Part shown: positions 84 to 63,898 of the stretch, piece by piece
Numbering within the stretch: the stretch's first letter is position 1
How the letters are laid out: each line of letters starts with the position of its first letter
DNA from: a virus
Length of the DNA stretch: 64,000 bases
Direction: 5' to 3' (one strand)
Virus record (IMG/VR): IMGVR_UViG_3300031873_000004
Span: 1-64,000 of that record
The notes under the pieces: generated by a model
Databases searched by the model: none
Told to the model about the DNA's origin: nothing
The model's input: the letters and a program-made list of their open reading frames with translations, nothing else
Program-made: the position numbers and the translations under genes

Positions 84-116
84 ATCAAATCCAGCACGAG
101 CCACTGCGGCAATCAT
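1..116 (-). CDS. Ser-X dipeptide-repeat peptide (MIAAVARAGFDG-SWSRSRSRSWSG...), runs off the window edge
   Basis: ATG at 116 overlaps the TGA of the upstream gene (ATGA). A 12-aa leader is followed by (TCG NGG)n. Not in the ORF track. Confidence 0.7.
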   Translation of the reverse strand, partial: MIAAVARAGFDGSWSRSRSRSWSGSRSWSGSWSGSWSG

Positions 117-454
117 TTAAGCGACCTCGGCAGAACTTCAATGCGAACTGCGTCAATAATAGCTCCTCGCCCAATAATAACTCGGCCAGAAGGAAATGGC
201 TCGCATTCATTGAACTGCGCCTTTTTGATAGCTTCGGAAAAGCGGCCTGTATCGGGTATCCATGCAGCATCTTCGAGCACCAGTTCGTGTTCAGTCACGC
301 TGACAAGTTTTCCCGTGTCAATCATGGTGACGGTGCGGATGAGATAATTTTCACCCACCTCCCATCCGTGTTCGGTAGTCTGACTGTTGCTGAATAACTT
401 CTGCAACTCCTGCAACTCCTTAACCTGCTTTAGTGTCAAATCGTCAATGTTCAT
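113..454 (-). CDS. Small Sm/SH3-like beta-barrel protein, paralog of 60829..61200
   Basis: YLIRT...GKL...ELVLEDA motif; AAGGAGG RBS before ATG at 454. Confidence 0.7.
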   Translation of the reverse strand: MNIDDLTLKQVKELQELQKLFSNSQTTEHGWEVGENYLIRTVTMIDTGKLVSVTEHELVLEDAAWIPDTGRFSEAIKKAQFNECEPFPSGRVIIGRGAIIDAVRIEVLPRSLK

Positions 455-3063: not shown

Positions 3064-3222
3064 CTACACAGCCGCCTTGATCTCTTTCACGACGAGCTTA
3101 ACTTCGCCGAGTGTCAAACCTGCCAAACCGGCCTTGACGGCTCTCGTGACTTCCTTCGCTTCCTTCGCATCGTTCGTCACGAAGCTTGCCTTCACGCTGA
3201 AATTCACCACGTTCTTTGCCAT
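3064..3222 (-). CDS. Small basic protein (MAKNVVNFSVKASFV..., 52 aa)
   Basis: Hand-translated; strong AAGGAGG RBS. Confidence 0.65.
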   Translation of the reverse strand: MAKNVVNFSVKASFVTNDAKEAKEVTRAVKAGLAGLTLGEVKLVVKEIKAAV

Positions 3223-3370
3223 ATTATACAGTCCTCCTTTCATTTAGTGATAAACTACTTGTCGAATGGCTGGTAGAGCTTACTTTCGACCCGCACCGAA
3301 ACTTCACCTTTGCCATAGCTCTCGTTTCGTGTGATGCGCGACCGCCAGTTCCACTCGACAAGCTCTCTGA

Positions 3371-46024: not shown

Positions 46025-46129
46025 TAACACTGATCAGGGCGGGACTGGCAAGAGCCTCCTCCTCGTTGCGTAAATAAGCAGAGCGAGAATCGGTGATCAG
46101 CCAGCCCCGCTGTATTTAAGGAGAAACAA

Positions 46130-46417
46130 ATGGCACGTTCACAACCGAACACGATGGTGATGACGGAGACAAGATCAGGCTCACCCGACGGCATCGGCTC
46201 GATGTTCTTTGAAGCCGGTAAGACGTACACTACGACCGAGCGACTGTTCAAGCTCTTCATCGCAAACGGCTGGGCAACGCTTCCTGGCGCTGAGGTTGAG
46301 GAGAAGATGCTCACCCCGGCGATTGAGAACAAGATGGCGCAAGAGACGATTGCCGACCGTGACAAAGCTGCCGATGATGCAAAGGGTGCAGAAGCGAAAG
46401 CGACAAAGCGGAGGTAG
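46130..46417 (+). CDS. Small head-completion-associated protein
   Basis: GSPDG...F..G.TY...ENKM. Confidence 0.6.
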   Translation: MARSQPNTMVMTETRSGSPDGIGSMFFEAGKTYTTTERLFKLFIANGWATLPGAEVEEKMLTPAIENKMAQETIADRDKAADDAKGAEAKATKRR

Positions 46418-59001: not shown

Positions 59002-60084
59002 ATGGATAGAACAAACGGTGCGAATAATATCAACGTGGGCGGCAAGCGCAAGTTTACAGACGGACCTCCTGGGACGTGCGTTGAAGAGGGTTTCCTGAAC
59101 GGTGTGCAGGAAGAGATAATGGCTGTGATCGAGGGTGCGGGACTTGTGCCCGACGCCAATGTCAACACTCAGCTCCGTGACAGCATCTTCGCTACCGTCT
59201 CCGGTGGTGGGTTCTTCAACGTGCCAGCTATAGGCTTGAGCATAGGTTCGGGCGGACTCGGCGCATATACCAGCGGCGGCAACTCTGTGATGGATGGCGA
59301 GTATCACTTCACCGACTTCACCTTGCAGAGTGCGCATCAGCTCAGCGTGGGCTCAACTGGCATTCTCATTATTCGCTGCACGGGGACGGCGACGATCAAC
59401 GGTAGTGTGAACGGTGCGGGAACTGTTGGGGCAAGTGGATCAACCGCCGGACTTCCTTATGGTAGTGGGGGTCATGGTGGAGGTGGGGGTGGTGCCGGAG
59501 GTTACGGAGCTGGTGGAAGTGGAGGGATTCCTCTATCTGTTAATTATGCGGGTAATGCTGGTGGATTTTGGTCTGCTGGTTCGGGAACCAACAACGGCGG
59601 AACCGCTGGTTCAGGAAAAACAAACCCACTACTTTTACGATTCCATGCGGGAATCATGGGAGGAAGTGGCGGTTCTAATTTGGGATCATGTGGTCAGCCC
59701 GGTGGTAGTTTAGTGAACGTTACAGAATGGACAATATGTAATTTTATTTCAATGAATGTTTTATTCGGAGGAGGAGGAGGCGGTGGGGGAAGTCCGACGG
59801 CCGGACTCGGTGGTCCAAGTGGAGGCGGTGGGGGTGGAGGTGGTTCTTTTATATTGATTGTTGCCCCTTCGATATTAGGTGCAGGATCAGTTAATTCTAA
59901 TGGTGGATATGGTGGTAGCTCTACGAGTGGTGCCGGAGGAGGAGGAGGAGGGGGAGGCGTTGCTATAACCGTATCGAAAAATACGCCGTCAATTTCAATC
60001 TCTGCGGTAGGTGGCTCGGCAGGGTCAGGATCATTCGTCGGTAGTGCGGGATCGAATGGATTTGGAAAAAGTTACCACCCTTGA
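59002..60084 (+). CDS. Tail fiber with Mu-type N-terminus and glycine-rich body
   Basis: MDR...FTDG...LN.VQEE...IE.AG.; poly-Gly segments. Confidence 0.8.
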   Translation: MDRTNGANNINVGGKRKFTDGPPGTCVEEGFLNGVQEEIMAVIEGAGLVPDANVNTQLRDSIFATVSGGGFFNVPAIGLSIGSGGLGAYTSGGNSVMDGEYHFTDFTLQSAHQLSVGSTGILIIRCTGTATINGSVNGAGTVGASGSTAGLPYGSGGHGGGGGGAGGYGAGGSGGIPLSVNYAGNAGGFWSAGSGTNNGGTAGSGKTNPLLLRFHAGIMGGSGGSNLGSCGQPGGSLVNVTEWTICNFISMNVLFGGGGGGGGSPTAGLGGPSGGGGGGGGSFILIVAPSILGAGSVNSNGGYGGSSTSGAGGGGGGGGVAITVSKNTPSISISAVGGSAGSGSFVGSAGSNGFGKSYHP

Positions 60085-60085
60085 T

Positions 60086-60508
60086 TTATATAGAACTGCA
60101 TTTGTGTAAATAATCTGTTTTATGATCAGCGTCCAATTTGCCAGTTATCCAATGTACTATTTCGTGATTTACTGCGAGAGAATACAGAGGTATGAGATCA
60201 TGAGTATAGATTGGTGACTGGACTTGAGTATCGATTGATACAAATAATATATCTGCATAGATACATCCATAAGTGTTTGGATTATTTTCATTACACCAGA
60301 ACAGAGTATCTACAATAACAAAGTACGGGTCGCCCTCACGGGCGTACCCGTACTCTTTCATACACGCCTGCACGCTTGCCACCTGCTCGGTAAGCGCGGC
60401 GTCCTGACTTGCATACCCCTCCCACAGTATAGCATTCCATCCGTGCGGCGTGTTGTCTTGCTGCCCGCATCCTGCAATTAGCATAATCGCTATCAACAAA
60501 ACTCTCAT
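60086..60508 (-). CDS. Lipoprotein with HExxH motif
   Basis: Lipobox LIAG-C; NHEIVHW. Confidence 0.7.
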   Translation of the reverse strand: MRVLLIAIMLIAGCGQQDNTPHGWNAILWEGYASQDAALTEQVASVQACMKEYGYAREGDPYFVIVDTLFWCNENNPNTYGCIYADILFVSIDTQVQSPIYTHDLIPLYSLAVNHEIVHWITGKLDADHKTDYLHKCSSI

Positions 60509-60595
60509 TTCACAGCCCTCTCACCCGCCCACGCACTCCTCCCGCAGCACGAGTGCTACGCAGACGAATATCACTACGATGAGTATTCGCATAGT

Positions 60596-60841
60596 CTATC
60601 CTTGACCATAGCCAGAGCCATAGCCATAGCCATAGCCATCGCCAGAGCCATAGCCATAGCCATAGCCATAGCCAGAGCCATGGCCATAGCCAGAGCCATC
60701 GCCATAGCCAGAGCCAGAGCCAGAGCCAGAGCCATAGCCATAGCCATCGCTAGAGCCAGAGCCATCGCCATAGCCATCGCCATAGCCAGAGCCATCGCCA
60801 TAGCCAGAGCCATAGCCATCGCTAGACGTTACTGTTTCCAT
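60596..60841 (-). CDS. Gly-X (X=Y/S/D/H) dipeptide-repeat peptide
   Basis: ATG overlaps the upstream gene by 13 nt; (GGC NNT)n. Confidence 0.65.
   Translation of the reverse strand: METVTSSDGYGSGYGDGSGYGDGYGDGSGSSDGYGYGSGSGSGSGYGDGSGYGHGSGYGYGYGYGSGDGYGYGYGSGYGQG
60605..60824 (-). repeat. Hexamer tandem repeat GGC-TAT/TCT/GAT, ~36 units
   Basis: Plus strand gccata/gccaga/gccatc units. Confidence 0.95.
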
Positions 60842-61200
60842 ATCTCAACCCCGTTGATTGATTTTACAGCCTTTGCAGAGCATTTGTCGATTTCGATCAC
60901 TTCCGTTAAAATCAACTCAGCAACCGCAACCGGAAATTTGCACTCTTTCGGTTTACTCGTCCCTTCCATCGCAAGCTGTGAGAGACTTGCCGCACCTGCC
61001 CACATCCACAACCGCCGAGCATTTGTCATCTCAACTTCTTTCCCGTTGCGGGACTTGATGTGCCCGAAGAACACACCAGCTGAGTTAGTGCGCACGATGT
61101 AATAATCCGCGCTCATTTCGGGCTGCTCCTTTATCAAGTCCTTCCTGATATATTCAGCTTCACTTCCGTCTTCGTTCTTCAACATAACAGAATGTAACAT
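60829..61200 (-). CDS. Sm/SH3-like protein (DUF6948-like), paralog of 113..454
   Basis: YIVRT.SAGVFFG...EV...NARRLW.W.GA.SLS..A..G; GGAGG RBS. Confidence 0.8.
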   Translation of the reverse strand: MLHSVMLKNEDGSEAEYIRKDLIKEQPEMSADYYIVRTNSAGVFFGHIKSRNGKEVEMTNARRLWMWAGAASLSQLAMEGTSKPKECKFPVAVAELILTEVIEIDKCSAKAVKSINGVEIWKQ

Positions 61201-61236
61201 TTTTATCCTCCCGTGAATTATTTACCTTCTTGACTT

Positions 61237-61262
61237 ATTATACTAGACTCACGTCGTTTAGT
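61237..61262 (-). promoter_or_regulatory. Putative middle promoter, near-identical to 473..498
   Basis: TCATAACTAAACGACGTGAGT-CTA-GTATAATA. Confidence 0.8.
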
Positions 61263-61282
61263 TATGACGATTTGAAAATAAT

Positions 61283-63898
61283 TTACAACTCATCCCAGAC
61301 AGCTCCGTTGTCATGCGGAAACTTCTCTATATACTGAGCAAGCGCTTCATGTGCCCTATCGTCAAGCCCAGCACGTTTCAGGATGGACGCATAGGTTAGG
61401 AGGAAGTGGTCAAACTCCGTACTGTTGGACATTGCTTCGCTTATCCACTTCAATCCCTCCTGCAAGTCAGCCACAGGATCGTTGTCAGCCCAGAGCTTGA
61501 CGAGTACCTGGCCGTACTCGAACTTAAAGCGATGGACTTCCTGAAAATCCTCCACCAACGACTTGTACTCAGCCGCCGCCAGGACCAAATTATCAAGCAT
61601 GTTATATGCCGATGCGATGCCCCAGCGAGCTTCTTGACGGGTAGGAATTAACTCCTTTGCCTTCTTCAGCAACTCCATCGCCTCGCTGAACTTTTTACCA
61701 TCGCGTCCAAGCTCAAGTGCTTCGTCTATGAGGTCGAGATACTCCGGGATTTTATTGCGATTGAGAGATAGATCAACCTCGTAAACGTCCTTTGCCTTCT
61801 CAATTGCATCCGTACGCATGATAATTGACCTATCAATTATATCGGCAGCATGTTTCATGATCAAAGCATCGGGTCGAGGTGCTTGTTTCATTGTCCGACA
61901 CGCTTCAAGATATGGTTTGGCGAATGCACCTGTGCTCAAATAGTGCTCAGCGTCATCTAAGCTCGGTGCATCGGGATCGCCAATCGAATCGAGTATTCCG
62001 GACTTCCCCTGACCGTACTCAATGAGCGTATTGCGAGTCTCCTCGTAAGTTGCTTTCAGGTCCTTTGCGGCATCACGAGCGGCCTTCAGGATTATCTCGT
62101 TGCGGTCAAGCCTGATGTCTCGCTCCTTCTTAAACTTCTTGGTGGCAAGCAACTGCGCATCAGCCTCCACGTTGAGCGCCCGTCCCTGAATAGCTCGGCT
62201 TGCTCCGTATATGGCAAGCGATACTGTCGGCATACGCTTAGCGGCTTCATACGCCACCGTGCTGTGTTTAGCATTTTCGTGAAATAGCTTCATCAGCTTT
62301 TTCTGACTGGTCGTGTTCCTCAATTTCATCACGGTCTTGAGTCCCAGTTCAGCGTGCTCGATAATGAGCTTGAGCAGTTTCAAGTCAGTAGTGAGCAGCG
62401 GGAGCAATCGCTGAATGGTCGCGTCGGCATTCGGGTCGAGATTGAGCAGAGGCTTGAGCACTGATTTGTCTATTGGTGCAATGGCATGTTTAGCAAGGGC
62501 ATCTGACAGGAACATACGCTTGGCCCCGCGCTTCCTCGCGCCACCCTCCGTACAGTCGATAGTCTCGGTATCTTTGAACGCTTCAATGAGTCGCTCAAAC
62601 GCTGTGATAAACGTCATCAACCCTGTGTTCGTGAGCACTGAATCACCCCACCACCCTGCAACATAGGTCTCAGGCCCCATGCCGATGTCGGTGCGGGCGT
62701 GAAGCGTCTTGCTTCGCGGATCGTCAACCACCCATTTGATCTGACCGTCAACCACAGTAATGTGACCAGCACTATCCGCTTGCATGAAATGGCTGGTCGT
62801 GCCGAGGGCTAGGTTCATTCCGACGAACATCACAGGCGAGCATCCCATATGAGCGCAGAGCGAGTACGCCATATGAGCGACCGAGCCGCCCTGTGCCAGC
62901 TCACCTTTATCTTTCAAGATACCGTGAGCAGTTTCGTCATATCCCTGATTGATTGACGCGCTAATGAACTTCGGACCCTTGTACGCCTTGAGTATAGGTG
63001 CGTACGTCTTGTTGATAGTGACCAGCGGTACGGTCTCGTCCATCAGTCCTGCGAGGTGGGTCATATTTACTTCACCGAAATCTACTGTACAAATGAAGTC
63101 TGGTGTGATGCCATAGGCGAGAAGAGGTCGGAGTGCCTGTGCTACTGCAACAATAATAACCTTGTCTTGTGTCTCTTTGAGCAGATGGATGTTGCGATTG
63201 AGAGCTGGACCTGTGCCAACCATCACTGCAGGCTTTCCCTTGAATAAATCCTTGAGGTCGTTTACTCCTCGATGGCGGATGACATATGGTAGGGTGGCGA
63301 TGTCATTATCAGCAATCTTAGCTCCGGCGCTCACCACAGTCCCAGTATTGCACTGGATTGCGTTGAGCGACTCAATTGTGTACGTGCTCAGCTTCCAGTA
63401 TTCCGGTCGAGTGCGAGTGATGAGTTCGATCAACACTCCCCAGTCCTCAACTACCTTTGAACCCTCCATGAGCGAAAGGAGGAAGTCAACTTCGGCTTTA
63501 CCGGGAGCAATGAGTAGCGATTGATTTTTGATATACTCGGACAAATCATATTGTGCAAACATCAATCTCAGCATATGAGATATAGGCTCAACTGCAATCA
63601 CATGATGCCCTTTTTCCATTTTCTTGAGAAGTAAATTCAACGCATGACCGAGGCCCACGCCTATGAATACAGTGACTGTCTCTTTATCGGAGCGAACCAT
63701 GTCAGCAACGCACTGTGCATCTTTGAATGGGTCGGTCACATCGTATACCGGTAGTGGTCGCCCATTCTCGGTTATCCAGAGCTGATCACCCTCATTCCGT
63801 ATCCAATCCTCGGTTGCACCCTTCTCCAACCACTCGGCAAGTCCGGGGTGGGTTTCTTTGATTGCTACCATGTTTTTCTCGTATATTTCAGTGCTCAT
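61283..63898 (-). CDS. Maf (motility-associated factor/DUF115)-like glycosyltransferase with C-terminal TPRs
   Basis: YEKN...HP.LA, G.GLG, FKGKPAV.VG.GP.L, GI.PD, GGSV, GC.P..FVG.NLA, TEGGA. Confidence 0.85.
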   Translation of the reverse strand: MSTEIYEKNMVAIKETHPGLAEWLEKGATEDWIRNEGDQLWITENGRPLPVYDVTDPFKDAQCVADMVRSDKETVTVFIGVGLGHALNLLLKKMEKGHHVIAVEPISHMLRLMFAQYDLSEYIKNQSLLIAPGKAEVDFLLSLMEGSKVVEDWGVLIELITRTRPEYWKLSTYTIESLNAIQCNTGTVVSAGAKIADNDIATLPYVIRHRGVNDLKDLFKGKPAVMVGTGPALNRNIHLLKETQDKVIIVAVAQALRPLLAYGITPDFICTVDFGEVNMTHLAGLMDETVPLVTINKTYAPILKAYKGPKFISASINQGYDETAHGILKDKGELAQGGSVAHMAYSLCAHMGCSPVMFVGMNLALGTTSHFMQADSAGHITVVDGQIKWVVDDPRSKTLHARTDIGMGPETYVAGWWGDSVLTNTGLMTFITAFERLIEAFKDTETIDCTEGGARKRGAKRMFLSDALAKHAIAPIDKSVLKPLLNLDPNADATIQRLLPLLTTDLKLLKLIIEHAELGLKTVMKLRNTTSQKKLMKLFHENAKHSTVAYEAAKRMPTVSLAIYGASRAIQGRALNVEADAQLLATKKFKKERDIRLDRNEIILKAARDAAKDLKATYEETRNTLIEYGQGKSGILDSIGDPDAPSLDDAEHYLSTGAFAKPYLEACRTMKQAPRPDALIMKHAADIIDRSIIMRTDAIEKAKDVYEVDLSLNRNKIPEYLDLIDEALELGRDGKKFSEAMELLKKAKELIPTRQEARWGIASAYNMLDNLVLAAAEYKSLVEDFQEVHRFKFEYGQVLVKLWADNDPVADLQEGLKWISEAMSNSTEFDHFLLTYASILKRAGLDDRAHEALAQYIEKFPHDNGAVWDEL

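Follow-up and report, generated by a model that had tools for sequence, protein, structure and literature searches.

A DUF6948 gene and a coupled Gly-Tyr/Ser/Asp repeat gene as a candidate two-gene unit of phages

The 64,000 nucleotides examined here (the window) are bases 1–64000 of the IMG/VR phage record IMGVR_UViG_3300031873_000004, a genome of 79,431 bp classed as linear and 97% complete. On their minus strand, between positions 60596 and 61200, they carry a gene for a DUF6948 protein followed by a gene for a peptide in which Gly alternates with Tyr, Ser or Asp (Gly-X below). We propose that these two genes constitute a self-contained, translationally coupled phage unit whose repeat protein partners a Sm-like barrel, a reading to which we give a probability of roughly 0.4. 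Taken by itself, the repeat gene is, judging from the comparison of homologous loci, very probably a real, translated gene paired with its neighbour. A two-gene unit of this composition had been put forward from the letters of the sequence alone (the original prediction); the PF22253 match of the first gene and the coupled repeat open reading frame (ORF) of the second bear it out. Thousands of phages and prophages carry the pair: its barrel is an unnamed DUF, and its repeat gene is often left unannotated, mis-framed or taken for non-coding DNA. In bacteria and their viruses it is unusual to meet a strictly period-2 protein whose array is hypervariable and whose Sm-like partner is highly conserved. 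Coordinates of the features are collected in Table 1.

The repeat gene encodes METVTSS, then 37 X-Gly units and the stop codon. X is Tyr in 16 units, Ser in 12 and Asp in seven, with His and Gln once each. The expectation of some 36 hexamers with a single Gly codon agrees with the copy number obtained by Tandem Repeats Finder (Table 1) and with codon usage: 34 of 36 Gly codons are GGC, the others being GGT and GGA, and one further Gly position reads AGC (Ser). Tyr is always TAT (16/16) and Asp always GAT (7/7). Ser at X positions is TCT throughout, compared with a TCT share of only 11% among the Ser codons of the long ORFs of this genome. The order of the units is aperiodic, as had been noticed: no lag among 1–12 was outstanding against shuffled orders (largest z 2.5) and the longest repeated X-string, five units, was equalled in 1339 of 2000 shuffles. 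For the suggestion that this order acts as a code we found no evidence. Translational coupling is indicated by the predicted overlap of the repeat-gene start with the DUF6948 stop, which amounts to 13 nt (60829–60841). The peptide is acidic (seven Asp and one Glu, net charge −8, isoelectric point (pI) 4.1, a single Gln) and probably disordered. The only two Rfam matches, MIR7526 and isrG, were rejected as weak and of low complexity (24–31 bits against cut-offs of 100–110), and so was a TrAA12 match of the peptide, which was below the cut-off and compositional.

The locus was present in one public run, a sediment metagenome, and no near relative of the phage was found among deposited phages. 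We compared 104 loci with DUF6948 homologues, 24 viral and 80 from bacterial or archaeal genome assemblies, plus four annotated phages. A Gly-X ORF stood directly after DUF6948 in 20 of the 24 viral loci. Similarly, 66 of the 80 genome loci carried a Gly-X array directly after it and six more were truncated by a contig end; at least four of the eight scored as lacking an array (L069, L075, L093 and L126) show interrupted or masked arrays. Taken together, about 95% of more than 100 DUF6948 homologues have such an ORF immediately behind them. The start of the repeat gene usually overlaps the stop of the barrel gene by 13 or 8 nt, and the array terminates at a stop codon. The module of the window fits this layout, with its Gly-X ORF downstream, on the same strand and overlapping the barrel stop.

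Codon usage across lineages was examined in the same set. Within an array the dominant Gly codon has a median share of 1.0, and the codon itself varies by lineage (GGC, GGT, GGG or GGA). Even among GGC-class arrays the other residues are spelled in both ways: Tyr by TAT (232) or TAC (341), Ser by TCT (241) or TCC (348), Asp by GAT (185) or GAC (259). The residue set kept across lineages is Ser, Tyr and Asp, accompanied by some Asn and Phe; a pool of about 1,580 X residues contained 555 Ser, 444 Tyr and 375 Asp, and only 10 Lys and Arg together. The window array is of this composition too: Ser, Tyr and Asp prevail at X, Lys and Arg are almost absent, and a single Gly codon predominates. The residues encoded by the two alternative frames differ between lineages. 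By this comparative evidence the Gly-X frame is the selected one, and selection is on the protein and not on a DNA motif, since synonymous codons vary by lineage while the residues stay Ser/Tyr/Asp. An untranslated repeat, unconserved next to homologues, had been named beforehand as the outcome that would speak against the unit; that outcome did not occur, as the repeat is conserved beside homologues and its Gly-X frame is selected.

The DUF6948 plus Gly-X pair occurs in phages and prophages of many phyla, with hosts or bins among Pseudomonadota, Bacillota, Bacteroidota, Acidobacteriota, Planctomycetota, Cyanobacteria, candidate phyla and some archaeal bins. Clustering of all ORFs of the 104 fetched loci yielded no third conserved gene family beside the pair. 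In the annotated phages it is situated among small early genes and recombination genes, and expression is probably early in infection. In 11 of the 104 loci an unannotated domain of about 150 residues is joined to the Gly-X array, which forms the N-terminal part of the protein and once the C-terminal part; this suggests that the array is a portable disordered segment. Neither the ESM Atlas nor Pfam assigned a function to the domains that Gly-X arrays are joined to. These fused arrays form a subfamily found mostly in Clostridia-type prophages (L080, L095, L098, L102, L105, L106, L113, L121, L128 and L135, C-terminal in the last). At one locus (L012:3109–3750) the array precedes a domain that is DUF7666-like by predicted structure.

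Arrays appear to change fast, as the original prediction had supposed. In pairs of phages whose flanks are 99–100% identical, the arrays are only 78–83% identical and of unequal length (89 versus 106 codons in one pair, 88 versus 80 in another), differences to which short-read assembly error may contribute. Arrays break short-read assemblies: both ends of the source contig fall in or beside arrays, as do many contig ends among relatives and the two positions, 60598 and 60828, at which the Logan contigs of the sediment run break (the Logan data for this probable source run being assembled contigs, not reads). In one relative (L008:3312–3630), part of the array reads as (Arg-Val)n, opening at a one-base insertion and closing at a compensating indel further on. 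The flanks of this array are 99.4–100% identical to those of L007, and the (Arg-Val)n part reflects either a faulty assembly or a genuine frameshifted allele.

Compared with its partner, the DUF6948 protein is highly conserved. PF22253 matched residues 33–115 at 94 bits, the cut-off being 27, with an E value of 6e-27, a result confirmed on the whole genome, and the family comprises more than 4,800 homologue clusters at E ≤ 0.001. An alignment of 41 sequences has 25 invariant columns, and the AlphaFold2 model built from it reached a mean predicted local distance difference test score (pLDDT) of 91.3. The best PDB matches of this model by Foldseek were all Sm/LSm chains, with E values of about 0.01–0.05 (one of them 0.014). 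An independent VIA-align search against representative chains similarly placed Sm/LSm-type chains in almost all of its top 36 rows, with Z scores of 4.4–6.8. The pI of DUF6948 proteins ranges from 5 to 9.9. A profile search of PDB sequences with DUF6948 returned no Sm protein, and PHROGs gave only a marginal match. The Sm fold is a five-stranded, strongly bent beta-barrel. As the scores are middling and LSM and Hfq models are not matched in sequence, we call DUF6948 Sm-like by its predicted fold and not an established member of the Sm/LSm family.

The original prediction regarded the DUF6948 module as the second copy of a module at 113–503 (copy 1). Of this, the common fold, topology and layout stood, while detectable homology of the partner sequences and identity of peptide type did not. 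The copy-1 partner had no match to PF22253; BLASTP gave no alignment between the two partners, and hhalign profile-profile comparison a probability of 2%. Both partner models nevertheless follow the order strand-strand-strand-helix-strand-strand-helix and have Sm/LSm top matches, which are stronger for the copy-1 family (19 chains scored at least Z 8). Each partner gene is followed by a coupled dipeptide-repeat gene, and a hexamer array lies downstream of copy-1 homologues in nearly all of 30 viral loci. The copy-1 peptide is of a basic (Ser-X)n type, unlike the acidic Gly-X peptide. Ser codons of both codon families (TCA, TCT, TCG or AGC, by lineage) point to its Ser-(Trp/Arg/Gly) frame; a Gly-Arg frame, attractive in the window, becomes Gly-Ala in the AGC lineages. 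The copy-1 partner probably starts at the ATG at 454 (MNIDD...) rather than at 472, because the TATAAT of its promoter overlaps the latter. Two distant copy-1 relatives, L060 and L061, are followed by Gly-X arrays instead, and in the L061 protein a PF22253 barrel follows an N-terminal helix of the copy-1 type. As the partner sequences show no detectable similarity while fold and layout are shared, we consider the two modules to be analogues with a probable distant relationship, and not ordinary copies of each other. Neither NCBIfam nor PADLOC returned a match for the repeat peptide, the DUF6948 barrel or the copy-1 partner.

Both module types are present in this phage. Searches for DUF6948 in 22 Ser-X phage records and for the copy-1 type partner in 17 DUF6948 phage records found none, with positive controls in this genome working in each case. 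Acid-base pairing of the two peptides as a general rule was rejected, because none of these 39 other phage records carries the second module type; in this phage such pairing is possible. Charge complementarity between partner and peptide was also rejected: DUF6948 proteins span the pI range given above and copy-1 type partners are mostly mildly acidic. The genome holds only one copy-1 type partner and, outside the window, a third repeat gene (genome 79129..79404, minus strand) for a 91-aa (Ser-Trp/Arg/Gly)n peptide of net charge +14. Direct joining of the contig ends would end the cut copy-1 peptide at a TAG 24 nt before the start of this third gene and would give two tandem Ser-X genes behind one Sm-like gene, as in several relatives.

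Our explanation of these observations is the following. The unit would have its own promoter; its first gene would supply the conserved DUF6948 barrel of Sm/LSm-like fold, and its second starts in the last codons of the first. From one founding hexamer, slippage or unequal recombination would lengthen, shorten and reshuffle the array, and its single codon per residue would stem from that origin, whereas selection would retain the alternation and the Tyr/Ser/Asp alphabet. The repeat protein could then be a detached low-complexity "tail" of the barrel, tuning or multimerising its binding to RNA or single-stranded DNA early in infection.

Arg-Gly tails are carried by SmD1, SmD3, SmB and LSm4, and the C-terminal domain of Acinetobacter Hfq is acidic and rich in Gly. 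The phage peptide would be the trans equivalent of the tails of SmD1, SmD3 and LSm4 or of Hfq: in each case a small bent beta-barrel goes with a repetitive, disordered Gly-rich segment. The differences are that the low-complexity part of the phage system is a separate polypeptide from an overlapping gene, with strict dipeptide alternation, that the phage barrel has no LSM or Hfq sequence match, and that ring formation and RNA binding are here putative. This detached-tail mechanism, drawn by analogy, is tentative and rather unlikely; nucleic-acid binding, ring formation and barrel-peptide contact are each inferred. If a barrel acting on RNA or single-stranded DNA through a detachable partner is indeed what the unit provides, early functions of phages would be linked to the biology of low-complexity domains.

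Several results weigh against a repeat protein partnering a Sm-like barrel. Two metatranscriptome runs yielded nothing at the locus, and the evidence for coding is comparative; one further DNA run with small word shares likewise yielded nothing there. The Sm likeness of DUF6948 comes from fold alone, with middling Z scores of up to 6.8: the Pfam LSM and Hfq models were unmatched and DUF6948 was the sole Pfam match at E ≤ 0.01. All five of the longer DUF6948 proteins lack a Gly-X tail at the C-terminus; as no such barrel/Gly-X fusion was found, joint action lacks gene-fusion (Rosetta-stone) support. Finally, the similar barrels of the two module types go with peptides of opposite charge, which a simple nucleic-acid-mimic role leaves unexplained.

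The same missing fusion favours an alternative in which the repeat protein acts as an effector, served by the barrel only as chaperone, regulator or antidote, with no part for nucleic acid. As forms of such an effector we considered a protein that makes silk-like or amyloid-like beta-sheets, a cross-linkable material rich in tyrosine and a decoy for a host factor or defence protein. In fibroin, alternating Gly lies on one face of the beta-strand, and the strict alternation seen here would likewise place all Gly on one face. The repeat is moreover the constant downstream feature, alone or fused to other domains, and the unit resembles a moron, with its own promoter, varied neighbours and, in this phage, a lipoprotein gene alongside. 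On the other hand, the barrel is conserved beyond what a chaperone for a hypervariable peptide would need (the 25 invariant columns among 41 sequences), and Sm/LSm proteins are the best structural matches of both partner families. We regard an effector as an unlikely explanation, though one to be taken seriously.

A more far-reaching version of the partnership with a Sm-like barrel is that both modules form a viral sticker-and-spacer system, in which a Sm-like ring on RNA or single-stranded DNA recruits hypervariable repeat proteins into condensates. Aromatic (Tyr/Trp) and charged (Asp/Arg) residues would be the stickers, spaced by Gly and Ser, and the acidic and basic versions would co-condense in this phage, as a counterpart of LSm-based ribonucleoprotein granules. 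We hold this version to be distinctly improbable. A likeness to prion-like domains of the FUS type had been pointed out for the peptide. Dense [G/S]Y[G/S] motifs are indeed there, 16 in 81 residues, all 16 Tyr being flanked by Gly. The uncharged, Gln/Asn/Ser-rich composition of such domains is not: the phage peptide has a net charge of −8 and one Gln, keeps a strict period of 2 and is unattached to an RNA-binding domain. The likeness is thus a resemblance and not membership. In the abstract of a 2026 study on phage SPO1 (PMC13401047), the role of phase separation in phage development is still called unclear.

Three cultured phages carry the pair and would give a direct experimental handle. In Ralstonia phage NK-7 it corresponds to XCO36016/XCO36015, the downstream gene being annotated as 'fibroin heavy chain-like protein'; in Pectobacterium phage Ymer to CDS0033/0032, with the repeat gene annotated as hypothetical; and in Iodobacter phage phiPLPE to gp84, a DUF6948 protein, and an unannotated downstream repeat. 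These pairs share with the window the PF22253 family, the gene order and the Gly-Tyr/Ser/Asp repeat downstream; they are uncharacterised, and the phage of the window differs from them in also carrying the basic Ser-X module. Our literature searches returned no description of the DUF6948/Gly-X pair or its function. The T4 early proteins GoF, MotB.1 and Frd.2 have been described as a family of predicted LSm-like fold in Tevenvirinae with a suspected RNA-related role (PMC12152347). By that description they resemble DUF6948 in being small proteins of early phage infection for which an LSm-like fold is predicted; the paper describes no repeat partner for them, and the words 'DUF', 'glycine' and 'disordered' are absent from its text.

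For this phage only, the surroundings raise the further possibility that the Ser/Tyr-rich repeat proteins are substrates of the neighbouring Maf-type O-glycosyltransferase and the nonulosonic-acid pathway. Directly upstream of the module lies a gene (61283–63898, minus strand) for an 871-aa MptE-like/Maf-type protein with TPR repeats according to Pfam. Sugar-pathway-like ORFs continue through to the contig end, and the arrays are Ser-rich. Against this, a separate promoter stands between Maf and the module, and no annotated or compared phage with the module has a Maf neighbour; we judge it very unlikely. The related statement that the two modules flank the Maf region is correct in its geometry if the genome is circular, but no link to Maf emerged and the neighbours in other phages with the module are quite different. 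As a side observation, genome positions 64000–73600 contain ORFs which by eye resemble nonulosonic-acid enzymes (a dehydratase, an aminotransferase, a NeuB-like synthase and a cytidylyltransferase).

It is still less probable that the array is a non-coding DNA element, such as an attachment or recombination site. This idea has a precedent: Table 3 of PMC3391216 lists in phiPLPE a 210-bp repeat, (KMGCCG)35, at 46,046–46,255, for which the authors speculated on a novel attachment site. We found this region to be the unannotated Gly-Tyr/Ser/Asp gene behind gp84 (L030:1197–1407; NC_011142.1 46,047–46,257). All frames of the array are open and each array is homogeneous at the DNA level, as a DNA element would allow. 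Lineages, however, keep the residues with different codons for Gly, Tyr, Ser and Asp, so that the DNA motif itself is not conserved; the array always starts just after a start codon overlapping or abutting the barrel gene and ends at a stop, in some cases forms one end, N- or C-terminal, of a longer protein, and is spread over phages of many phyla that have no neighbour in common. Least probable of all is translation in another frame, for although the original prediction was right that other frames are largely open, with the Ala-Met/Leu frame (MAMALA) at 60574..60819 on the minus strand and the Ile/Arg-Ala frame (IAIARA) at 60602..61102 on the plus strand both present, no other frame keeps its residues, as the same offsets in relatives give Ala-Thr/Pro, Gly-Thr/Pro or Val-Arg among others, the conserved coupled start belongs to the Gly-X frame only, and a database protein entering the array in the Ala-Met frame (P0068) looks like a gene-calling artefact.

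Table 1. Positions of the two repeat modules and of neighbouring features in the window, all on the minus strand (genome, position in the complete record)
Feature	Position	Strand	Basis or remark
81-aa (X-Gly)37 repeat protein gene, X = Tyr/Ser/Asp, net charge −8	60596..60841	−	ORF and conserved Gly-X ORFs after DUF6948 homologues
Hexamer array of GGC-TAT, GGC-TCT and GGC-GAT units	60606..60819	−	Tandem Repeats Finder: period 6, 35.7 copies
123-aa DUF6948 protein gene, predicted Sm/LSm-like barrel	60829..61200	−	PF22253 and AlphaFold2 model
Promoter-like element of 30 nt with TATAAT at its end, upstream of the DUF6948 gene	61235..61264	−	Copies at 471–500 and genome 69741–69770
Sm-like partner of the basic module (copy 1)	113..454	−	Alignment A3, AlphaFold2 pLDDT 77, Sm/LSm matches to Z 8.8
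Copy-1 (Ser-Trp/Arg/Gly)n repeat gene, ATGA overlap, cut by the contig start	1..116	−	Homologous loci
Possible 23-aa hydrophobic micro-ORF	60521..60592	−	Starts 4 nt after the stop of the repeat gene
140-aa predicted lipoprotein, lipobox LIAGC, HEIVH (HExxH) motif	60086..60508	−	Last gene of the co-directional block

The promoter-like element upstream of the DUF6948 gene was predicted to be common to the module at 113–503, and its copy there indeed differs by only four mismatches. Downstream of the element at 61235–61264 are GGGAGGA (61206–61212) and the ATG at 61200. The copy at genome 69741–69770 precedes a series of small genes, none of them a repeat gene; the element is therefore not module-specific and is, as a sequence motif, a candidate general promoter of the phage. 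A weak copy lies at 3221–3250, and the elements stand 20–35 nt upstream of minus-strand start codons.

On the other side of the module, the possible micro-ORF begins MRILIVVIFVCVALVL... and may encode a small membrane peptide of the same operon. The predicted lipoprotein had no Pfam, PHROG or PADLOC match. Its gene converges on a plus-strand gene (59002–60084) for a 360-aa tail-fibre-like protein, with weak PHROG tail-fibre matches at the N-terminus; this protein contains long poly-Gly and Gly-rich tracts, which are not a dipeptide repeat.

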